IMG/VR virus record: IMGVR_UViG_3300033067_000549
Span: 1 to 51,262 of that record
From: a virus
Taxonomy: Duplodnaviria; Caudoviricetes
Length of the DNA stretch: 51,262 nt
Direction: 5' to 3' (one strand)
The notes under the pieces were generated by a model. The model saw nothing but the letters and a program-made list of their open reading frames with translations. It made no database searches and was not told the origin of the DNA. Made by a program: the position numbers and the translations under genes. This document shows positions 3,404-35,598 of the stretch, one piece after another (within the stretch, counting starts at the first letter, position 1; each line of letters opens with the position of its first letter).

Positions 3404-4200
3404 GAGGTCACCTCCTTGCTACGCAATTCCTTGAGTATGGACTCGGCGGCCCAGATTGCCGAGTTGCCGAGGTGGCGCTGCCATGCGCCCGAGGTCGGAG
3501 ACCACCGGAACCCGGAGGCCTTGAGCTTGCCGCGGACCTCGGCGTCCGGCTTGCCCGGAAAGATGATCTGGAGCCGGTTCTCCTCGACGTTCTGCACCAA
3601 CTTGATGCCGGTGTTTCCGATGTCCACCTCCTTGTGTTCGCGGGTCGCGGCACGTTCGAGGTGGGCAATGCGGTCCTTCACGCGCTTGATGTTGGCGTTG
3701 TTGTTGCTGAGAGCGTAGGGCGGGAAGCCGATGGGGCCGCGGCCGTTGCCCCACTGAGGGACCTTGAGTTCCGCGATCATCTTCTCGGAGAACCCGAGAG
3801 CCTTGAGCGCGGCATCGTCGCCCTTGCGGAGCGCGGCGTTGGCCGCCTTCATGCGGGCTTGTGCAGCCTCCAGCTTCTCCAGCTTCTCGCGGAGCTTGTC
3901 CGGTGCATCCGGGTCATCCGACGAGATACCGGCGGAGCCCACCGATTCCGCGGCCGAGCGAGCCCGGGCGGCGGCCTTGTCTGCCTCGATGGCCTTCCGC
4001 ATGTGGCTGTCATGCTTGGCGAGGGCGGCGCGGTGGCGGCGCTCGCTGTGATGACCGACGAGGATGGGCTGTCCGAACGGGATGCCCGCAACCTCGGCGC
4101 TCGCGGCCTTGAACCGGGCGGCTGAAATCCTATCCAGCTTCTCCGCCCGGGCGAGGAGGCGCTCGCGGCGGGCCTCCTGCTTTGCTTCATAGTGGTTCAT
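3400..4200 (-). CDS. DUF3560 domain protein
   Basis: IPFGQPILVGHHSERRHR signature, ISSDDPDA, LSNNNANIKR, C-terminal LKASGFRWSP..GAWQR. Confidence 0.85.
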   Translation of the reverse strand: MNHYEAKQEARRERLLARAEKLDRISAARFKAASAEVAGIPFGQPILVGHHSERRHRAALAKHDSHMRKAIEADKAAARARSAAESVGSAGISSDDPDAPDKLREKLEKLEAAQARMKAANAALRKGDDAALKALGFSEKMIAELKVPQWGNGRGPIGFPPYALSNNNANIKRVKDRIAHLERAATREHKEVDIGNTGIKLVQNVEENRLQIIFPGKPDAEVRGKLKASGFRWSPTSGAWQRHLGNSAIWAAESILKELRSKEVTS

Positions 4201-4209
4201 GGTGTCCTC

Positions 4210-4536
4210 CTATTCAATCCGGTCATGGATGGGGAGCGCCCCAAGGAAGGGGGCTCCGGTGATCTTCTCGACTGCCCGAACAAAGCGCCCGTCCGAGCAT
4301 CCGGCATAACTGCCGCCGAACATCACCCACTTGCCCCCGGCATCAGCCGGAATGAGCTTGGCGCAACCGGGCAGGTTGCCCTTGACCAGCTTCAAGACGG
4401 GGAGGCCCTTGGCCTCAAAAATCTCGGGGATGTCGTCGCCCACCACGAGAGCCTCGTTATGGGTCTCGGAAAGCCCCCCGTTCGCGCATTTGCGGAACAG
4501 GGGATTCGAGAAAATGTAAACTGAAAGTCCCTTCAT
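4210..4536 (-). CDS. conserved hypothetical phage protein
   Basis: CANGGLS...MFGGSY..SDGRF...LPIHDRIE pattern; AAGGAG RBS. Confidence 0.75.
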   Translation of the reverse strand: MKGLSVYIFSNPLFRKCANGGLSETHNEALVVGDDIPEIFEAKGLPVLKLVKGNLPGCAKLIPADAGGKWVMFGGSYAGCSDGRFVRAVEKITGAPFLGALPIHDRIE

Positions 4537-4544
4537 TTCGTGTC

Positions 4545-4604
4545 TCCTTTCGTCTCACTATGTAAACGAAAATCGGTGACCCGGTAATGTGGCGGGATGT
4601 CGCA
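4545..4604 (-). promoter_or_regulatory. leftward promoter/operator module, copy 1
   Basis: 44/60 ungapped identity to 6901-6960; both copies sit directly upstream of a leftward gene and include its RBS. Confidence 0.7.
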
Positions 4605-4605
4605 C

Positions 4606-4977
4606 TCAGTTGGGAGGCTTGATTGTAACCGTCGTGCCGGTCACGAGGGTCTCGGGGGCCGCATTGTTGAGGCATTGCGTGACCGCCATGATGACTTGGG
4701 CGCGGATGTACTGGACCGTTCTGTCGGCCGCCTCCTTGTCGATGTAGTCGATGGCGTTAGCGTGGATGTTGTAGATGATGGAGGAAAGGGCATGGGCCAC
4801 CCCCTCGGCAACCTGTGAGTGCTTGATGGTCACGCCGCGCTCAATCTCGGCGGCCATGGCGTAGTTCATCCCGGACTGAATGAGGATGGAGATGCGCTTC
4901 CACGGCTCCATCTCGTCGCGGGGGGTGGGGTCACCGGCGAAAGCCTCGGCGGCAACCTTGTCATAGGTGGACTTCAT
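4606..4977 (-). CDS. hypothetical protein
   Basis: GAGGAG RBS, coupled ORF in the leftward operon. Confidence 0.7.
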   Translation of the reverse strand: MKSTYDKVAAEAFAGDPTPRDEMEPWKRISILIQSGMNYAMAAEIERGVTIKHSQVAEGVAHALSSIIYNIHANAIDYIDKEAADRTVQYIRAQVIMAVTQCLNNAAPETLVTGTTVTIKPPN

Positions 4978-24677: not shown

Positions 24678-27600
24678 ATGGCAAAGATGCCGGGTGTGAT
24701 GGTCGAGGGTCCGTGGTCCCCGGAGGATGATGCCGAGGCCGCTCGCAAGGCGCGGGCCTACAAGCCAGAGATGGCGGAGGTCAAGCCGCCGCCCGGCCCC
24801 GTGTTCTCCGGCCCGGATGATAGCGCTCCGGCCACATTCATCGAGCCCAGCAGGCCCTCCCTCTGGGAGCGGACCAAAGAGCATTTCAACTATCAGGTGA
24901 ACCATGGGTTCTTTGCCCTCGGCGACCTGATGGAGATGCGCCTCCAGCGCCTCAATGCCGAGGAAAAGCAGGCCGAACTCGCCAAGATGCAGGCCGAGGG
25001 GCAGGGCGACACCATGGCCGCCAAGCGGACGGAGATGGAAATGTTCCAGTCCGCCGGGGAGTCCGAGATGGCGCGGACGGCCCGGGCCGAGGACACGTTC
25101 CGGTTCGAGAACATGCCCGCTGCCGAGGGGGTGTTGGAGAACGCCGCTGCCGTGGTGGGTGGCTTCGCGGGCTCCATCGACCCCACGGTCATTGTGCCCG
25201 AGGCCAAGATTGGCACGACCGCGTGGCGCATGGGCTCGCCGGTTATCTCCAAGATGCTCGACTATGGCGTCTCCAACGCGGCCATGAACGCGCTTCTCAA
25301 TGCCAGTGTGCAGGCCGGTGAATTGGGGGCCGACATCCGGGACGAGATTGATTGGGATTCGGTCCTCCTTGACGCCGGGGTGGGTGCAGCCATGGGGGTC
25401 CCGTTCGGCTACATCCATGGCCGGGCGGCCCGCGACGAGATGGCGCAATTGGTGCAGGCCCCGGAACCGGGTATGGCACCATGGGCACCGCCTCGCACCG
25501 GCCCGCGTGTCGAGAATGTGCCCAAGCCTGAAAGGGTGCCGGACCAGACCACGGTTGAAAGCATCTCCGAGGCCCATGCCCCGGAGGAGATCACAGCCGC
25601 ACAAGAGACCCTGTTCGGCGAAGTGGTGGGAACGCGCAACCTCACCCCCGAGCAACTCAATCAGGTGGACGACTACATCAACGCGGGCAAGCCATACGGA
25701 GAGGAGTTTCCTCGTGAAACAACCGTTCAAGATATGCCCCCGGTGCGGGAGCCCGCACAATCGGAAGCAGAACCGCTACCTCAAGTGTCAGAGCGGGGAC
25801 AACCGCAAGGCAGCGCGAACCCGGCTCCGGCAGATCAAGGCGCGAGCCCGCGAGCCCAAGAGCCCGCCCCTCTCGGAGCAGACTACCAAGACCTGAAACC
25901 CGAGGACCTCAAGGTCGATGCCAGCCGCTTCCAGTTCAAGGGCGGCGGCGACTCGGAGGGGGTGATCGACACCCTCAAGAAGGTCAAGACATGGGACCGG
26001 AAAAAGGCCGGGGTCATCATGGTCTGGGAGGACCTCGCCGGGAACAAGTTCGTGGTGGACGGTCATCAACGCTATGGCCTCGCCAAGCGGCTCAAGGCCG
26101 AGGGGCAGGACCAGACCCTTCACGCCATGGTGTGGCGGGAGGCGGATGGCATCACGGCCGAGGACGCCAAGGTCCTCGCCGCGGACATCAACATCTCGCA
26201 GGGCTCCGGCACCGCGGTCGATGCCGCAAAAATCCTCCGGGCTCGCCCGGAGATGCTGGACAACCTGCCCAAGAACGCGGTGACAGATCACGGCGTAGGC
26301 CTCGCCAAGCTCTCGGATGACGCCTTTGGCATGGTGGTCAACGGCAAGGTCCCGCCCGAGTACGGAGCAATCGTGGGCAAGCTGGCCCCGAACACCTCGA
26401 CCCATGCCCAGATCATGGATGTCCTCGCCAAGAACGAGCCGGCATCCGCGGCCCAGGCCGAGAGCATGGTGCGCGATGTCCTCGCCGCGCCCGAGGTCGA
26501 GCAGACCATGACCGACATGTTCGGCTCCAGCGAGGTCACGCAAATCCTGTTCAAGGAGCGGGCTCAGGTCCTCTCCTCGGCGGCCACCGCGCTCCGCAAG
26601 GACCGCGCCGCCTTCAACACCCTGGTCAAGGAGGAGGCCCGCCTCACCGGGGCCGGGAACAAACTCGCCACGGCCACCAACCTCGAAAGGGCACAGACCG
26701 ATGCCGAAATCCTCGCAACCCTCCAAGCCACAGCGCGGCGCAAAGGACCCGTTGCCGACGCCCTCGCCGCCGCCGCCAAGTCCCTCCATGACGGAACCCC
26801 TCGACAAGTCGCCGTCCGGGAGTTCCTCGACCGTATCAGGGGAGAGGTTAAAGGTGCTTCGCCGGACGGCAAGGGCATTTCTCCATCGTCACAGTCCATT
26901 GCAGCCTCGCTAGGAGGCTACCGCAACACCGACACCCCGGCCTTTGGTAGGTGGTTCGGCGACTCCAAGGTGGTCGATGAGAATGGCGACCCGCTCGTTG
27001 TCCATCACGGCACCGGCGAAAAGTTCGACGCCTTCTCCAAGGACATGGTGGGGACCTCGTTCAATCAGGACGCTCGCGGGTTCTTTTTTACTGACAGCAG
27101 GCCCGAGGCCGAGGGTTATGCCCGCAACACCTCATACGGTCTGCCCCGCGATACGCCCGGCACGGTGCAAGATGTTTACCTGTCCATCAGGAACCCGCTT
27201 GTCAAAGAAATCGACTTCGACCCCATCGACGCATGGGACAACAACCACAAGGCATTTCAGGAGGAGGCGGCTCGCGGGGGGCATGACGGCATCACCATCA
27301 AGGCCCGCAAGGGCGCAAGCATGTATGTTGCCTTCGAGCCCACCCAGATCAAGAGCATCTACAACCGGGGCACATGGGATGCAGAGGACCCGAGGATTTC
27401 GTTCTCCGCCCCTCGGCAGGCAGGCCCCGGCCTGTTCGATGTCGGTGCAGACAAGAAGCCCCAGGCGGTTCTCCCTGGAGCCGAGCGCATCGGCGACAAG
27501 AGCCTCGCCGAGCGCCGGGCAGCCGCCCCGCTCAAGCCGACCAAGCCCCAGAAGTCCCTCGACTTCGGCTTGTTCGGGGACAGTGGCGACCAGATGGACC

Positions 27601-29021
27601 TCGTGGACCTCGCTCGTCTCCCCAAGATGGTGAAGCAGGACGCCGACTATCTGGATTTTTCCCCCTCTGGGACGGCGAAAAACGCCATCATCGGCAAGGC
27701 ATCCATCACCTATGCGGCCAAGGACGGCGAGGTCGAAATCCTCGCTTTCCGGGTCCCCACCCAATTCCGCCGCCGTGGCGAAGGCCGGGAGGCGCTCCTC
27801 GCTTTCCTCGAAAAGGCGGATGACGAGGGCCTCGCCGTCCGGGCTTACTCCACCCCGCTCGACCGCTCGACCGACCGGGAGGGCATCATCCGGTTCTATG
27901 AGGGCCTCGGCTTCACGGCGACCGGCCGCAAGATCAACGCCGCGGGCGACATCGAGATGCTCCGCTCCGGGCCTCCGCCCGAGGTGGCAGAACTCCGGCA
28001 GCTTGTGGGGCAGGGTCGCCTCATCCCCTTGCGCGACTACACCGAGCCCGCGATGGCACAGCAGGTCTCGCAGGCCTTCTACAACACCCAGCCCTCTCGC
28101 CCGCTCGACGCGCTCTATGAGGGCGGCATCCTCCAGAAGCATCAAGACCGCCTCGGCCGGGTCGGCGACGAGATTGCCCAGATCACCGGGGCCAAGTTCA
28201 AAAACCCGGGCCTCAAGAAAAAGGCCACCGCCCAGCAGAAGATGATTCGCAAGCGGTACAAGGGCACCAACCGGCTCGCCGACCTCGTGCGGGCTGGCTT
28301 CCTCGTGGACACCCCGGACCAAGCGCAAAGGGTGGTCAACCTCCTCGCCGAGAATTTCCGGGTGCTGGATGAAGGATGGGCGGTCCTCGCCGAGGGCTAC
28401 TTCGACCGCAAGGTCATGGTGCAGTTTGCGGATGGCACCATCGGCGAGGTGCAAATCTGGGAGCCGTCACTCCTCAAGGCCAAGATGGAAGGGGGCGGGC
28501 ATGAACTCTATACCGCGGCCCGCGACCTCCCGCCGGGGCCTGAAAAGGCCGCGCTCCAAAAGAAGATGGAGGACCTCTACTACCCGCTCTTGGATGCGCT
28601 CGACCCTTCTTGGGGCGCGACCGTGGGCAGAGAGGGCAAGATGCCGAATGTCCGGGAGAACTCCTCGCGCATGGCATCCTCGGAGGCAAGCAACCTGCCG
28701 GAGTCGCCGACCTCGGCGGAATCGACTTCCTCCCAATCGGCACCGGGCTCCAGCACGGCCCAAGCGAAACCTTTGTCTGAGACCGCGGGGCGGCCTTCCC
28801 AATCTACGAACTTCATGGAGTCCTCCATTTTGGGCGAAGATACGGGGGCAGGCCGGGCCTCGCAAGGGTCCAAACCGTCGCAGGAATGGCGCACCGTCGA
28901 AATCGTGGCCCAGACCGAGACCGGGGAGACCGTAAAACTCCCGGCTGGTGAGGCTGTGGACTATATGTTAAGCCGCATCAAAGCAGCGCGGGAACTTCTG
29001 GATTGTGTAAATGCGGGTTAA
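24678..29021 (+). CDS. large polyvalent virion protein: ParB-like + ADP-ribosyltransferase + GNAT + RelA/SpoT-like domains
   Basis: ParB-like FQFK...VVDGHQR (~25900-26800); ART FGRWFGDSKVVDENGDPLVVHHGT...GFFFTD...YLSIRNP...HDGI...AFEPTQIKS (~26930-27400); GNAT RVPTQFRRRGEG...RFYEGLGF (~27700-27960); RelA/SpoT-like LKK....QKM...DLVRA...GYFD...EVQI...GHELY (~28130-28600). Confidence 0.85.
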   Translation: MAKMPGVMVEGPWSPEDDAEAARKARAYKPEMAEVKPPPGPVFSGPDDSAPATFIEPSRPSLWERTKEHFNYQVNHGFFALGDLMEMRLQRLNAEEKQAELAKMQAEGQGDTMAAKRTEMEMFQSAGESEMARTARAEDTFRFENMPAAEGVLENAAAVVGGFAGSIDPTVIVPEAKIGTTAWRMGSPVISKMLDYGVSNAAMNALLNASVQAGELGADIRDEIDWDSVLLDAGVGAAMGVPFGYIHGRAARDEMAQLVQAPEPGMAPWAPPRTGPRVENVPKPERVPDQTTVESISEAHAPEEITAAQETLFGEVVGTRNLTPEQLNQVDDYINAGKPYGEEFPRETTVQDMPPVREPAQSEAEPLPQVSERGQPQGSANPAPADQGASPRAQEPAPLGADYQDLKPEDLKVDASRFQFKGGGDSEGVIDTLKKVKTWDRKKAGVIMVWEDLAGNKFVVDGHQRYGLAKRLKAEGQDQTLHAMVWREADGITAEDAKVLAADINISQGSGTAVDAAKILRARPEMLDNLPKNAVTDHGVGLAKLSDDAFGMVVNGKVPPEYGAIVGKLAPNTSTHAQIMDVLAKNEPASAAQAESMVRDVLAAPEVEQTMTDMFGSSEVTQILFKERAQVLSSAATALRKDRAAFNTLVKEEARLTGAGNKLATATNLERAQTDAEILATLQATARRKGPVADALAAAAKSLHDGTPRQVAVREFLDRIRGEVKGASPDGKGISPSSQSIAASLGGYRNTDTPAFGRWFGDSKVVDENGDPLVVHHGTGEKFDAFSKDMVGTSFNQDARGFFFTDSRPEAEGYARNTSYGLPRDTPGTVQDVYLSIRNPLVKEIDFDPIDAWDNNHKAFQEEAARGGHDGITIKARKGASMYVAFEPTQIKSIYNRGTWDAEDPRISFSAPRQAGPGLFDVGADKKPQAVLPGAERIGDKSLAERRAAAPLKPTKPQKSLDFGLFGDSGDQMDLVDLARLPKMVKQDADYLDFSPSGTAKNAIIGKASITYAAKDGEVEILAFRVPTQFRRRGEGREALLAFLEKADDEGLAVRAYSTPLDRSTDREGIIRFYEGLGFTATGRKINAAGDIEMLRSGPPPEVAELRQLVGQGRLIPLRDYTEPAMAQQVSQAFYNTQPSRPLDALYEGGILQKHQDRLGRVGDEIAQITGAKFKNPGLKKKATAQQKMIRKRYKGTNRLADLVRAGFLVDTPDQAQRVVNLLAENFRVLDEGWAVLAEGYFDRKVMVQFADGTIGEVQIWEPSLLKAKMEGGGHELYTAARDLPPGPEKAALQKKMEDLYYPLLDALDPSWGATVGREGKMPNVRENSSRMASSEASNLPESPTSAESTSSQSAPGSSTAQAKPLSETAGRPSQSTNFMESSILGEDTGAGRASQGSKPSQEWRTVEIVAQTETGETVKLPAGEAVDYMLSRIKAARELLDCVNAG
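25714..25896 (+). CDS. overprinted (+1 frame) 60-aa basic zinc-ribbon-like ORF inside the polyvalent gene
   Basis: GAGGAG RBS 7 nt before GTG; KICPRCGSPHNRKQNRYLKC; host frame here is a low-complexity linker. Confidence 0.4.
   Translation: MKQPFKICPRCGSPHNRKQNRYLKCQSGDNRKAARTRLRQIKARAREPKSPPLSEQTTKT
28580..28816 (-). CDS. antisense-embedded 78-aa acidic protein, candidate antitoxin of the RelA/SpoT-like domain
   Basis: GGAGG RBS 5 nt before ATG; own promoter; globular-looking MKFVDWEGRPAV...WAVLEPGADWEEVD; host frame becomes Ser-rich over the same span. Confidence 0.7.
   Translation of the reverse strand: MKFVDWEGRPAVSDKGFAWAVLEPGADWEEVDSAEVGDSGRLLASEDAMREEFSRTFGILPSLPTVAPQEGSSASKSG
28837..28865 (-). 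promoter_or_regulatory. sigma70-like antisense promoter inside the polyvalent gene
   Basis: TTGCGA-N17-TATCTT on the minus strand, 20 nt upstream of ATG 28816. Confidence 0.65.
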
Positions 29022-31102: not shown

Positions 31103-31768
31103 ATGGCCGACCAAAAGAAAATAACGCTTAGGCCATTTCACGCCAGCCCCAAGACCATCGTCGTCAATGCCTTGCCCGTTGCCACCCCGAGCAGCGGCAC
31201 AACCATTCACCTCTATGAGTTTCACGCGACGGCCAAGACGGTCGTTCTCCGGGACCCAACCGCTACCCCTGTAGTCTCCTCGACCGGGGCGGTGTTCTCT
31301 GGCACCGCGGCAATGGTGTTCGGGCAGAGCGGCAGCCTGTTCGCCCCCTCGGAGTTCGCGGGCTCAACGTCCCTCACCCTCGGGCAGACCGGCGACCTCG
31401 ATGCGCCGACCTCGATGTCCGGCACCGCAACCACGACATTCTCCCAGACTGGCGACCTCTCGGCCCCCAGCGTCCTCGCCGGGTCGGCTCCCCTTACCTT
31501 TGACCAACAGGGCACATTCAACGCCGCCGCCGGTGCAAGCGGAGCCACCTTTGCAGGCACCGCCGCCATGTCCTTCGGGGCGGAGGCCACTTTCTCGGCA
31601 GCCGTCGCCGAGACCCAAGAGGCGAATTTCAACTCGGCCTATGTGGCAAGGATGTTGCGCCGCAAAAAGCAGGGGGTAACGCCCGAGCCGCAAATCGTGC
31701 TAGAGGCGAATGACGACGACGAGGCCATTGCCCTCGTGATCGAGCAATTCTTGAGGGTCGCCGCATGA
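31103..31768 (+). CDS. repetitive Ser/Thr/Gly-rich structural protein
   Basis: ~22-aa repeats of form (F)xGxxxxxFxQxGxL; ends DDDEAIALVI. Confidence 0.7.
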   Translation: MADQKKITLRPFHASPKTIVVNALPVATPSSGTTIHLYEFHATAKTVVLRDPTATPVVSSTGAVFSGTAAMVFGQSGSLFAPSEFAGSTSLTLGQTGDLDAPTSMSGTATTTFSQTGDLSAPSVLAGSAPLTFDQQGTFNAAAGASGATFAGTAAMSFGAEATFSAAVAETQEANFNSAYVARMLRRKKQGVTPEPQIVLEANDDDEAIALVIEQFLRVAA

Positions 31769-34700
31769 GCATCGAAAAGTGCATCCGCACTATCCCCGTA
31801 AACCCCGATGACCTCGTGGAAATTCGCAAGTTTGTCGAGAGCGAGGGCTCCGAGAACAAGGGCATTAAGTCATGGCTCTCCTCGCTAGAGGGCGAATTGG
31901 AGGGGGTCTATAAGCAGATCGAGGCCAAGGGCTTCAACGCCAAGGAGACGCCGGACGCCGGAATCGCCTTTGCCGCCCGCCCTCAGCCCGGCTCGAATAT
32001 GCCGGTCAACCGGTCACAGGCCGGGGTGGTTGCCAACCAGAATGTGCCCGGGGTCGAGCGCCTCTCCAAGGTGACCGAGACCCTCCAGTCCATCACCGGC
32101 GCACCCGTCCGGCAGGGCAGGCTTGCCCGGGCTCCCAAGGGGCAGAAGGTGGCCGGGCAGTATGACCGCAACCAAGGGGTCATCCGCCTCGCCGACGCCA
32201 CCGACTTCGAGACCCAGACCCACGAGACCGCCCACTCGCTGGAGACCGAGTGGGGCCGCACCCTCGACGCCATCAAGAACACCCACCGGGCGGAACTGGA
32301 GACGCTGGCTTACCCCGGGGCAGACCCGCGGCAGACCCTCTCGGAAGGCTTTGCCGAGTGGTTCCGGTTCTATGTGACCACCCCGAACTATGCCCAGCGG
32401 CAGGCCCCGCAATTCACTCAGGCCTTCGAGGATATGATGAAGGCCGCTCCCCAGCAGATGGCCCGCATTCAGGACGTGCAGAAGCGTTACGCCGCATGGA
32501 CCAAAGCCCCCTCGAAAGCGGTGGTGGCGGCGGATGTGGTCTCCTCCCGGAAGGGCAACGCCATCGCCGAAGCGGTGGCCGAGGCCGGTGGCCCGCGGGA
32601 AGCCCTCGGCGAGTTCGCCTCCAAGGCCTACACCGCGGTCATCGACAAGCTCAATCCCATCAACCGGGCGCTCGATGAACTGATGAAGGTGTACGAAAAA
32701 CGCACCGGCAAGGCGCTCGACCTCAAGAGTTCCGAGGACCCCTACCGCCTCGCCCGTCTCACGGCTGACAGCTATGCCGCCGGTCATGTCGATGCCATGC
32801 ACGGCGTTGTGCCCTATCGCGGGGTGGTCTCCGAGGGCGCGAGCCTGTCCGACGCCATCACCACGGCGCTCGGCGCTCAATGGCGCGGCTGGGATGACAC
32901 GGCCATGGCAGACTTCGCAGCCTACCTCATCTCCCGCCGGTCCATCAAAGAGTACTACCGCTTCATGGCGGGCGACATCCCCAACCCGCCGGGCAAGTTC
33001 ACCCGGGGCGACTACGAGGTCACGGTCAAGGAACTGGAGGCCGCTCACCCGAACTATGTGCAGGCCGCCGAGATGGTTTACGAGTGGGGCCGCAACATGC
33101 TCCGCAAGAAATACGAGGCGGGCTTCATCGGGCAGGACCTCTACGAGGAGTTGCTCAAGCGCGAGGATTACGTGCCCCTCATGCGCGACCTCCGGGACCT
33201 CGACAAGGAGGCGGGCGCTGGCACCGGCGGCAACAAGACCCTCCGCAACTCCATCATGAAGGCCTTCAAGGGCTCCAAGCGGTCGGTCATCAACCCGCTC
33301 GAATCCATGCTCGCCGACTCCTACAAGACCAATGCCCTCATCAAGCGGAATGAAGTCTATCGCGCCCTCGCCAATGTGGCCGAACTGGCAGGCCCGGGCG
33401 GCGGTGCCATCATGGAGAAAATCCCCTCCGTCCAACTCAAGGGCTCAAAGGTCGGCGTGACCGAGGTGTTGCGCTCGGCCGCCAAGGAGGTCGGGCTCTC
33501 GCCTGATGACATCGACCAGATCACCACCCTCGCCGACGACCTCCTCGGGGATGAAGCCACCGGCACGGTGTTCCGGGCGGGCGACATCAACGAAAAGGGC
33601 GAGCCCATCATCTACGTGTGGAAGGACGGAAAGAAGCAGGCCTACCGCCTCGCCGACGGGCAATTCGGCCGGGACCTCTATGACTCGATGACTGGCATGA
33701 ACAAGGAAATGCGAAACCTGTTCATCAACATCATGGCGCTCCCCTCGACCATCGTGCGCTATGGCGTGACCACCGCGCCCCATTTCGTTCTCGCCAACTA
33801 CATCCGCGACCAGATCAGCGCATGGGTTCTCACCGGCCGGGGCTACATCCCCTTCATCTCCGGGGCGAAGGGTATGCGTGACGAACTCACCCAGCGGGAG
33901 ATCACCCGCATCTACAACACCTTCGGCGGCATCATGGGCGGCGGCAACGTGGCCTCGCTCGACAAGGGCCGGGCACAGCGCGACATCAATGCCCTCAACA
34001 AGAAGGGCTATAACGTCAAGCGGTTCGCTGGCATCCAAGGGTTCTCCGAGTTCACCGGCATCTCGGAAACCGGCACCCGCCTCGCCATCTTCGACAATGC
34101 CTACAAGAGGGCCAAGCGCGACGGGCTCACCGACTACGAGGCCGCGGTCGAGGCTGCATATCAGGCCCGCGATTACATCGACTTCGGCCGCCACGGCTCC
34201 CAGACCCATGCGGTTCGCCGCCTCGTCACCTTCCTCAACGCCTCGCTGCAAGGTCTCGACAAGACGTTCCGCACCCTCTCGGCCGAGGGCGCATGGAGGA
34301 AGGCTATCGCCCCCTACGTCACCCACCGGGAGGGCCGCCCCCTCTCGGCGCGAGACAGGGCCAACATGAAGCAGAGCGCCGCGGCCTTCGCCAAGATGTC
34401 GGCCATCGGCATGTTCGGCCTCGGCATCTCCTACCTCTACCGCGACGACCCGGAATACGAGGAAATCTCCGACTATCTCAAGGCCACCCACTGGATGGTC
34501 AAGAAGGGGCCGGGGGAATGGTACGCCATCCCCAAGCCCTTCGAGTTGGGCTTTGTCTCGAACCTCATGGAGGCCTCGTTCGAGAGCGTTTACAAGGGCA
34601 ACCCGGTGGCGATGGAGTCGTTCTATGCCGGGCTCTACGAGGTCACGGCCCCGCCCATGGGCATCCCCTTGTTCGAGACCATGTACGAGTTGAAGCACAA

Positions 34701-35598
34701 CCGCGACGGCCTCGGCCGCGACATCGTGGGGCCGGACATCGCAGGCTTCGAGCCGTGGCGGCAGTACACCGCCCAGACCTCCGAGATTGCCAAGGCCCTC
34801 GGGGGAGCGGTCAACGTGTCTCCGGCCAAGATTGACCATGCCTTGCAGGGCTGGGGGGCATCATGGGGCAAGATCATCACCGACGCCTCCAGCGCCCGGG
34901 CTCAAGGCCGGAGCGAGGTCGAGGTCCTCTCCGGGGCCATGACCAACCGCTTTGTGCGAGACGTGACCCGGGGCTCCACCTCCTCCATGCAATTCTGGGG
35001 GCTGGTCTCGGAAAGCACGGGCGAGTTCGCCAAGGCGGCAAAGACCTATCAGGACCTTGCCGAGAACGGCGCACCCGGGGCCGGTGAACAGATGCTCGCC
35101 TCCAAAGACGAGAACACAAAGGCCTTTGCTTTGATGCAGGCGCATTTCAAGCCCGACGTGGAGCGGCTCAATCCGCTCGTGCGGGCCAAGGATAGCATCG
35201 CCGTGATGTCAGCCCTCCGCAAAGAACTGGCGGGCAACAAGGTTGTGTCCTCCGAGGACTCGACCGACGAGGAGCAGGTCACCCTCACCCTCAATCCCAC
35301 CCAGCGCAAGATGGCGCAGGAGTTCCTCGCCCGGCTCCAGATGATCGAGGCCCGCAATTCCCTCGTGGTCATGGGCGTCCCGGGCTGGAAGCAAAAGACC
35401 TTGATGGAGACCGCCTCCCTCTACGAGGACCTCCGCACCACCTCGCCGGAACTTGCCGACGAGATGGAGGCCCGCATGGTCAAGAAAAAGGTATATGACT
35501 TTGAAGCCGTCCGAGAGGCGTGGCCCGACGTAAAGGCCCGTGTTCTGGAGGATGGCAAGGACGCCGACTTTTCAGACATCCTCGCAGGAATGGAGTAA
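31765..35598 (+). CDS. large polyvalent/ejection protein with zincin-like motif and LPD38 domain
   Basis: HETAH...EGFAE; DYVPL; IDFGRHG; YEEI.DY.K.THW...IPKPFELG...SPAKIDH. Confidence 0.85.
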   Translation: MSIEKCIRTIPVNPDDLVEIRKFVESEGSENKGIKSWLSSLEGELEGVYKQIEAKGFNAKETPDAGIAFAARPQPGSNMPVNRSQAGVVANQNVPGVERLSKVTETLQSITGAPVRQGRLARAPKGQKVAGQYDRNQGVIRLADATDFETQTHETAHSLETEWGRTLDAIKNTHRAELETLAYPGADPRQTLSEGFAEWFRFYVTTPNYAQRQAPQFTQAFEDMMKAAPQQMARIQDVQKRYAAWTKAPSKAVVAADVVSSRKGNAIAEAVAEAGGPREALGEFASKAYTAVIDKLNPINRALDELMKVYEKRTGKALDLKSSEDPYRLARLTADSYAAGHVDAMHGVVPYRGVVSEGASLSDAITTALGAQWRGWDDTAMADFAAYLISRRSIKEYYRFMAGDIPNPPGKFTRGDYEVTVKELEAAHPNYVQAAEMVYEWGRNMLRKKYEAGFIGQDLYEELLKREDYVPLMRDLRDLDKEAGAGTGGNKTLRNSIMKAFKGSKRSVINPLESMLADSYKTNALIKRNEVYRALANVAELAGPGGGAIMEKIPSVQLKGSKVGVTEVLRSAAKEVGLSPDDIDQITTLADDLLGDEATGTVFRAGDINEKGEPIIYVWKDGKKQAYRLADGQFGRDLYDSMTGMNKEMRNLFINIMALPSTIVRYGVTTAPHFVLANYIRDQISAWVLTGRGYIPFISGAKGMRDELTQREITRIYNTFGGIMGGGNVASLDKGRAQRDINALNKKGYNVKRFAGIQGFSEFTGISETGTRLAIFDNAYKRAKRDGLTDYEAAVEAAYQARDYIDFGRHGSQTHAVRRLVTFLNASLQGLDKTFRTLSAEGAWRKAIAPYVTHREGRPLSARDRANMKQSAAAFAKMSAIGMFGLGISYLYRDDPEYEEISDYLKATHWMVKKGPGEWYAIPKPFELGFVSNLMEASFESVYKGNPVAMESFYAGLYEVTAPPMGIPLFETMYELKHNRDGLGRDIVGPDIAGFEPWRQYTAQTSEIAKALGGAVNVSPAKIDHALQGWGASWGKIITDASSARAQGRSEVEVLSGAMTNRFVRDVTRGSTSSMQFWGLVSESTGEFAKAAKTYQDLAENGAPGAGEQMLASKDENTKAFALMQAHFKPDVERLNPLVRAKDSIAVMSALRKELAGNKVVSSEDSTDEEQVTLTLNPTQRKMAQEFLARLQMIEARNSLVVMGVPGWKQKTLMETASLYEDLRTTSPELADEMEARMVKKKVYDFEAVREAWPDVKARVLEDGKDADFSDILAGME

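Follow-up and report, generated by a model that had tools for sequence, protein, structure and literature searches.

A candidate immunity gene nested antisense in the reading frame of a Tas1-like synthetase domain in a phage polyvalent protein

Could a phage virion protein that contains an alarmone-synthetase toxin domain also encode, on the opposite strand of the same reading frame, the protein that neutralises it? The question is raised by IMG/VR record IMGVR_UViG_3300033067_000549 (Duplodnaviria; Caudoviricetes), a near-complete virus record of 51,262 bases (97% complete, 62.9% GC) that we analysed at its full length and refer to here as the window. Its plus strand encodes a protein of 1447 amino acids (aa; 24678..29021) in which we place a putative RelA/SpoT-type synthetase domain resembling that of Tas1/Apk (28080..28637, +), and within the same open reading frame (ORF) the minus strand carries a small gene (28580..28828, -). 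A preliminary description of this DNA had proposed that the domain and the antisense ORF form an embedded toxin-antitoxin pair, portable as a cassette. Our analysis supported that interpretation overall: the small gene exists, is under selection, is linked to the domain and has conserved start signals, and we infer its antitoxin role from its strict linkage to the domain.

To identify relatives, the last 347 aa of the 1447-aa protein, starting at 27978, were used as the query, and residue numbers below refer to this query. A search of 1.84 billion representative proteins returned 746 relatives at E<=0.001. When a profile of 39 homologues was compared with the PDB, it matched Tas1 (6ox6) at E 5e-20 over profile positions 106-276, as well as 8vx3, labelled alarmone synthetase SaSAS, at E 5.6e-5; a PDB search with the synthetase region as a single sequence returned nothing. 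The domain occupies query residues ~35-220. Residues K80, D102, R105, D131, Y141, D143, E157, Q159, K169 and Y178 are invariant in the 39-sequence alignment, K88 is also invariant or nearly so, and the E-V-Q strand lines up with its counterpart in Tas1. These residues may correspond to the motifs of a synthetase domain, with basic residues for the ATP phosphates, an Asp, a stacking Tyr and a Glu-x-Gln strand. The profile matches support placing the predicted domain in the Tas1/Apk branch of the RelA/SpoT-homologue pyrophosphokinases. Tas1, since renamed Apk1, is reported to be a (p)ppApp synthetase toxin (PMC10083569, PMC12691689; papers cited by PMC number are represented here by excerpts).

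The small gene ends at a TAG (28582-28580, -) and has three possible starts, GTG 28894 (104 aa), ATG 28828 (82 aa) and ATG 28816 (78 aa). The alignment of its family hidden Markov model (HMM) begins at the Met of ATG 28828. A 78-aa minus ORF running from 28816 to 28580, a GGAGG and a TTGCGA-N17-TATCTT had been noticed in the preliminary description, and all three are present where they were placed. The GGAGG ribosome-binding site lies at 28826-28822 (-), 5 nucleotides (nt) before ATG 28816, and the promoter-like site spans 28865-28837 (-), with TTGCGA at 28865-28860 and TATCTT at 28842-28837. ATG 28828 is located 8 nt past TATCTT, a spacing of the leaderless type. The small protein is acidic, with a calculated isoelectric point of 4.25, and the synthetase domain is basic (8.7). 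A terminator-like hairpin with a T run at 28226-28209 (-), ~355 nt downstream of the stop of the small gene, was discounted as evidence: such sites are no more numerous than shuffled sequence predicts, and the one here sits in a conserved plus-strand Gly-Leu-Lys-Lys-Lys motif.

On the plus strand, the bases of the small gene encode a linker rich in Ser, Thr, Ala and Pro (28583..28830, +), with 19 Ser in 83 residues. This tract had been read in the preliminary description as a degeneration of the frame into Ser-rich sequence. The composition is as described, but the tract is conserved: the plus-frame match runs through it to query residue 270 or beyond in 116 of the best 150 of the 746 relatives, in which the Ser-rich tract contains a recurrent motif. 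A further 32 of these 150 stop matching at or before residue 235, and 27 of them are proteins truly ending within 12 aa of that point, just after the synthetase domain; these domain-terminating homologues, which include P0044, P0049, P0103 and P0145, have the form of canonical C-terminal toxins. Over 28608-28830, the pattern of GC content at first and second codon positions (GC1/GC2) in the plus frame inverts, a pattern compatible both with a Ser/Thr/Pro/Ala linker and with a real gene on the minus strand.

How regularly does the small gene accompany the domain? Homologous DNA was collected by scans with a seven-sequence alignment, yielding 55 viral loci and 5 genome loci, the latter titled Pseudovibrio, Bradyrhizobium, Methylophaga, Burkholderiales and Chromatiaceae. 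All 44 unique loci whose plus match extends to residue 270 encode a recognisable small protein of 58-89 aa in the antisense frame that shares third codon positions with the plus frame. Its hallmarks are two nearly invariant Trp, a Gly-Arg-Pro-Ala core and a Phe-rich C-terminal stretch. At E<=0.01, the small-protein HMM matches 58 of the 59 loci fetched via the synthetase domain. The gene is antisense and embedded in 57 loci, with the plus frame open throughout; that frame extends 190-1531 nt past the small gene in 30 of the 57 and leaves the locus end in the other 27. Phage and prophage loci carrying the small gene are titled as alpha-, beta- and gammaproteobacterial.

The five genomes carry the small gene opposite six of seven synthetase domains and have no copy elsewhere. 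Small-gene copy number follows the toxin domain, with two domains and two small genes in genome G001. Stops in the antisense frame or missing ribosome-binding sites in homologous loci had been named beforehand as signs that there is no gene. Ribosome-binding sites proved to be conserved, as detailed below, and the stops that occur in the aligned span of some loci all fall at query position 217 or lower, so we read them as the natural ends of shorter ORFs. A close relative, L001/L003, was set aside as uninformative, being identical over 28400-29021. A tblastn search of GenBank phages gave no match, and the Protein Atlas held no usable match for P0173.

ORF length alone is no evidence for such a gene, as ATG-ORFs of 78 aa or longer number 87 on the minus strand of the window. 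With third codon positions common to the two frames, a minus stop is possible only at a plus Tyr (or stop) after a pyrimidine-ending codon, or at a plus His or Gln after a T-ending codon. A Tyr-free, Ser-rich linker therefore leaves the antisense frame open for free. In a shuffle test, loci were grouped into 21 clusters at 60% identity, and each locus was subjected to 1000 synonymous shuffles that kept the plus protein and its codon usage. One fixed criterion was applied to real and shuffled sequences alike, with 200,000 simulated sets. An ORF that has a start and spans 51 codons or more was observed in 21 of 21 clusters, compared to 10.3 expected. With a 4-base Shine-Dalgarno required as well, the count was 16 clusters compared to 2.8, and with GGAGG or AGGAG it was 11 compared to 0.7. 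None of the 200,000 simulated sets attained any of these three observed counts. An earlier version of the shuffle, conditioned on the observed ORF and its best ribosome-binding site, was biased toward the gene and was not used. The conservation of ORF and ribosome-binding site that the preliminary description had proposed to look for in homologues is thus found, above what the plus protein leads one to expect.

Fixed silent bases also point to the minus frame. At two conserved Gln codons, the plus codon just ahead has C as its third base without exception (36 of 36 and 27 of 27 unique loci). Where Ser precedes these Gln codons it is encoded by TCC in 24 of 24 cases; elsewhere, conserved Ser columns draw on the full set of four TCN codons, and third positions are generally saturated across loci. 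At the level of clusters, C is fixed before the Gln codons in 30 of 30 cases, with a joint probability of 10^-12.4 when the frequency of C among the fourfold sites of each locus is taken as background. This fixed C implicates the minus frame because it is silent in the plus frame yet supplies the G of a minus TGG, the third base of a Trp codon.

Selection on the two frames was separated by counting third-position transversions per site in 10 independent close pairs, also on an alignment based on the minus protein. In the overlap (residues 203-282), sites that are fourfold degenerate in both frames carried 35 transversions in 218, sites fourfold in plus and twofold in minus carried 2 in 121 (Fisher p 1.4e-5), and sites twofold in plus and fourfold in minus carried 7 in 108 (p 0.014). 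The synthetase domain (residues 35-198), used as a control with a virtual antisense frame, gave 37/325, 18/184 (p 0.66) and 6/326 (p 4e-7) for the same three classes. The minus frame is under strong purifying selection in the overlap only and not in the control domain, in line with the selection that the preliminary description had proposed to test for in the antisense frame (2/121 vs 35/218). The plus frame is also constrained in the overlap, though more weakly than in the synthetase domain (7/108 vs 6/326).

Signs that the plus frame is maintained were seen from the other side as well. In a reverse shuffle that kept the minus protein, the plus frame was open in 21 of 21 clusters compared to 15.7 expected (joint probability 3e-5). 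Embedded small proteins contain 1.1% Tyr, His and Gln, compared to 5.2% in free-standing copies (p 6e-8), a depletion that is expected if the plus frame must stay open.

Conserved start signals accompany the antisense frame. Of the 44 unique loci, 29 have GGAGG or AGGAG ahead of the start that was chosen, 7 have a 4-base core there and 8 have neither. Loci without a Shine-Dalgarno have a TAnnnT hexamer 7 nt before the ATG and a TTG-type hexamer 17-18 nt upstream. This 7-nt spacing is what would be expected of leaderless transcripts, and the window appears to have the same layout for ATG 28828 at 8 nt. With at least 4 of 6 matches required in each hexamer and a spacer of 16-18, a promoter-like site lies upstream of the start in 8 of 21 clusters, compared to 1.9 expected (p 5e-6). 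The putative promoter of the window is weak in itself, yet it is placed where its relatives also have one.

The small protein also occurs outside the nested arrangement. In one locus (L036, 2067-3140, +), a truncated synthetase remnant is followed by a same-strand, non-overlapping ORF with two tandem small-protein domains. Both copies contain many Tyr, His and Gln residues, and the frame opposite them is interrupted; the ORF has the appearance of an orphan immunity gene next to a toxin that has decayed. In another (L018), the polyvalent gene ends at 3617 and, ~300 nt further on, a convergent gene (3929-4750, -) carries tandem small-protein copies. Judged by eye, that gene encodes the same sequence as the C-terminal portion of P0170, a hypothetical protein from Aminobacter aminovorans that is 706 aa long. 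P0170 has hydrophobic segments at its N-terminal end and contains four copies of the small-protein domain, and the P0170/L018 form might be a membrane-placed array of immunity domains. Searching a 5.8-billion-protein collection with the small-protein profile returned just 19 matches of near-query length and 10 longer ones, with several of the 19 on contigs of ~1 kb or less. Such a small number of database matches is consistent with gene callers discarding the nested form.

The portable cassette envisaged in the preliminary description drew support from a tandem duplication and from where homology ends. A locus titled Pseudovibrio sp. (L058, 996-2911) has two tandem synthetase domains in one 2308-aa frame with an antisense small gene behind each, so that the whole cassette is evidently duplicated. 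Protein homology among relatives mostly stops at query residues 270-299, just upstream of the start of the small gene. Contigs of relatives assembled from public runs share 90-99% identity over 28167-28885 and diverge at 28830 or 28885. This break, just upstream of the start and promoter of the small gene, suggests a recombination boundary of the cassette. One homologue, P0012, has a ~190-aa insertion between the synthetase domain and the Ser/Thr-rich motif, which indicates that the small gene is separable from the domain.

Two readings of these data would dispense with a minus-strand protein. One holds that there is no antisense gene, and that the ORF is a shadow of a GC-rich gene, open since its linker has no Tyr codons and mirroring the conservation of the plus frame. 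The abundance of long minus ORFs in the window fits this view, as does the fact that about half of the synonymous shuffles keep the frame open (10.3 of 21) with third positions shared. Column-wise amino-acid conservation is also nearly equal in the two frames (0.435 vs 0.426), a measure that cannot separate them and was dropped as a test. A shadow, however, does not account for ribosome-binding sites and promoters conserved far above the shuffle expectation, for a Trp-codon third position fixed in 30 of 30 cases, for a minus-specific depletion of transversions confined to the overlap and absent from the control domain, or for free-standing homologues on either strand with the opposite frame interrupted. 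The shuffle test, the Trp-codon fixation and the transversion classes led us to reject a chance shadow ORF, which we regard as extremely improbable. The other reading places the constraint on nucleic acid, as a conserved RNA structure, an antisense regulatory RNA or a DNA site inside the plus gene. Fixed synonymous positions can indeed arise from RNA or DNA elements, and the minus promoter-like site could drive a non-coding antisense RNA. Yet the constraint tracks the genetic code of the minus frame in its twofold and fourfold classes, the start codon is accompanied by a Shine-Dalgarno at fixed spacing, the ORF keeps a length of 58-89 aa in 44 of 44 unique loci, and the same amino-acid domain recurs in free-standing genes of different nucleotide sequence; we consider this explanation very unlikely. 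The minus ORF is almost certainly a real protein-coding gene, and the Ser-rich, seemingly degenerate plus sequence is its shadow.

If the gene is real, what does it do? Its strict linkage to the synthetase domain suggests that it probably has an immunity function. It could alternatively be translated and serve another purpose, as a chaperone or packaging adaptor of the toxin domain, a regulator, or a superinfection-exclusion or anti-defence factor carried along in the cassette. All of the evidence that the gene is real applies equally to such roles, the small protein has no similarity to Tis1 or any named immunity family, and the membrane-anchored four-repeat relative P0170 would not be predicted by a simple cytoplasmic antitoxin. 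We nonetheless consider a role other than immunity unlikely, if well short of negligible, given the one-to-one linkage with the synthetase domain that extends to the duplicated cassette, the orphan tandem copy next to a decayed synthetase, the pairing of an acidic small protein with a basic domain, and the arrays of paralogous copies. Linkage, orphan copies, charge contrast and paralogue arrays are typical of toxin-immunity pairs in polymorphic toxin systems. Apk2 toxins, moreover, are reported always to occur with an adjacent structural immunity gene (PMC10083569). As a whole, the explanation that we find reasonably likely, and the best available, is a nested antisense gene encoding the cognate immunity protein of the synthetase domain.

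Several observations weigh against this explanation. RelA_SpoT of Pfam matched neither the whole 1447-aa protein at E<=0.1 nor its C-terminal pieces at E<=10; the RelA/SpoT-like domain recognised in the preliminary description is upheld by the Tas1 profile match at E 5e-20, despite this lack of a Pfam match. The domain may be toxic, and we treat (p)ppApp, (p)ppGpp and tRNA pyrophosphorylation as candidate options for what it makes. The small protein has no family in Pfam, NCBIfam or PHROGs. Compared with PDB sequences, its profile had a best match at E 0.05 (LexA), with no Tis1-named chain listed; the PDB presumably contains Tis1. Because the small protein is not detectably a relative of Tis1, it is position that argues for an immunity role.

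The promoter claim of the preliminary description stood for the relatives, with 8 of 21 clusters compared to 1.9 expected, and fared less well for the window, where the site agrees with just 8 of 12 consensus positions and did not pass a generic promoter scan, which found 1 site in 6.3 kb compared to 0.8 expected. Head-on late transcription could interfere with so weak a minus promoter. Two synthetase copies gave weak small-protein matches: L045, the one locus missed by the HMM (E 0.077), and G004:C267, a second copy in one genome (E 0.002 in a single-locus search); both carry a similarly placed antisense ORF. The G003/L060 copy has an internal TAG within its small-protein match. Sequences within clusters are related, and the counts given above are not fully independent. 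Public-run contigs holding the stretch are probably DNA and come without strand, start or level information; a 338-letter contig from an RNA-labelled run spans 28585-28885 at depth 4 and was not counted as expression.

We propose that the minus frame would give rise to a globular protein, small and acidic, from a family not named before, while the plus frame would use the same bases as a low-complexity, flexible linker toward a short C-terminal domain. By analogy with Tis1 acting on Tas1, the small protein may neutralise the synthetase domain by direct binding. Its own promoter, together with its own ribosome-binding site or leaderless start, could make its synthesis independent of late plus-strand transcription, and it might be produced either by the lysogen or producer cell or soon after ejection. 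The domain and the antisense gene would then move together as one cassette. Since third positions are shared and the plus side needs only a flexible linker, such a cassette could enter a giant ejected protein in frame at any point, or even be duplicated, without toxin and antidote ever being parted. On balance, we lean toward the general view that phage and prophage polyvalent proteins carry self-immunised toxin cassettes of this kind, with the immunity gene antisense in the same frame and equipped with its own promoter and start signals.

The remainder of the 1447-aa protein is in keeping with a polyvalent protein. Pfam searches found ART-PolyVal at aa 767-896 and a weak GNAT match. PHROG matches were to very large virion proteins of unknown function, and a further one was to the C-terminal part of a portal-protein profile. 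Sub-threshold matches to Phage_portal (E 0.0066), CBM96 and PEP-CTERM in the Pfam, NCBIfam and PHROGs searches were taken as noise, and no MuF family was among the Pfam matches of the whole protein or its N-terminal pieces. It is preceded by genes with matches to a tail protein, to an internal virion protein and to a protein bearing a transglycosylase. Given ART-PolyVal and these preceding virion genes, we interpret the product as a polyvalent protein of the internal-virion or ejection region.

Having crossed the overlap, the plus frame reaches a C-terminal domain of ~60 aa (28839..29018, +), which is conserved in the homologues P0001, P0003, P0005 and P0008 and matched no Pfam family. In many loci, the plus frame crosses the antisense gene merely to reach a C-terminal piece of ~190-400 nt, similar in size. 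Elsewhere in the window, a second giant protein of 1277 aa (31765-35598, +) matches Pfam LPD38, a domain associated with large polyvalent proteins.

How does this arrangement compare with known systems? One counterpart is the Tas1 (Apk1)-Tis1 effector and immunity pair of the Pseudomonas aeruginosa type VI secretion system. The two share a domain match over the catalytic core (E 5e-20) and a small protein encoded right beside the toxin domain. They differ in that the toxin domain of the window is internal to a phage virion protein, with the small gene antisense in the same ORF rather than downstream, and in that the small-protein profile found no Tis1-like chain among PDB sequences. Another is the Apk2-BcTis1/Aph1 system of MuF-domain phage polymorphic toxins (PMC10083569, PMC12226406, PMC5576092), in which the same class of enzyme is phage-encoded on a virion-associated carrier. 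Behind the MuF-fused (p)ppApp synthetases of the Apk2 type, a tis1-like immunity gene is reported in every case, a small structural gene adjoining the toxin (PMC10083569). The Apk2 toxin domain, however, is C-terminal and its immunity genes are co-directional in an operon, whereas the plus frame of the window continues through the immunity-like gene and Pfam detected no MuF domain in its product.

The toxSAS modules FaRel, PhRel and CapRel (PMC7229694, PMC11782079) likewise combine a RelA/SpoT-type toxin with a small neutralising protein, and some are phage-borne. These modules consist of two adjacent genes or have the antitoxin as a fused C-terminal domain, with none described as antisense-nested in the excerpts of these papers. 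Their toxins are stand-alone enzymes, whereas the toxin candidate of the window is part of a virion protein of 1447 aa. The plus product resembles the polyvalent proteins that phages and conjugative elements encode (PMC5512222) in being multi-domain, with ART-PolyVal and RelA/SpoT-type domains, the latter being noted for such proteins in that paper; excerpts of it make no mention of nested immunity genes. Antisense overlapping genes of bacteria such as Pseudomonas aeruginosa and E. coli O157:H7 share a fully embedded ORF, their own start signals and purifying selection (PMC8850804, PMC9927249, PMC7457138). Protein-coding genes nested fully antisense are few in bacteria and phages, and they are contested. 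As described in these papers, they are mostly young, evolutionarily novel and of no known function; the gene in the window, in contrast, has free-standing family members, wide conservation and a clear functional partner encoded opposite it.

The main texts of PMC12691689, PMC5512222, PMC12226406 and PMC3482391 use the word "antisense" nowhere (0 occurrences). In the abstracts and main-text passages searched, we found no immunity gene nested antisense in the reading frame of its toxin. Toxin-immunity pairs of this enzyme class are known, including in phages; what is new, as far as searched, is the position of the immunity gene, antisense in the toxin frame.

At this locus, dual coding is proved by comparison and checked against an internal negative control, the small-protein family has free-standing relatives, and an obvious partner lies on the opposite strand. 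This combination makes the function of antisense overlapping genes directly testable by a simple toxin-rescue assay. It suggests a way for a virion to harbour an alarmone-synthetase toxin while sparing its producer, or for the enzyme to be switched off after ejection, and a way for toxin domains to travel with their antidote from one mosaic polyvalent protein to another. In terms of annotation, it points to a class of genes that gene callers discard. If the interpretation is true, the pair would be a deeply conserved and functionally assigned antisense pair, and nesting the antidote within the toxin frame would be a general safety route for mosaic toxins that gene callers have kept hidden.

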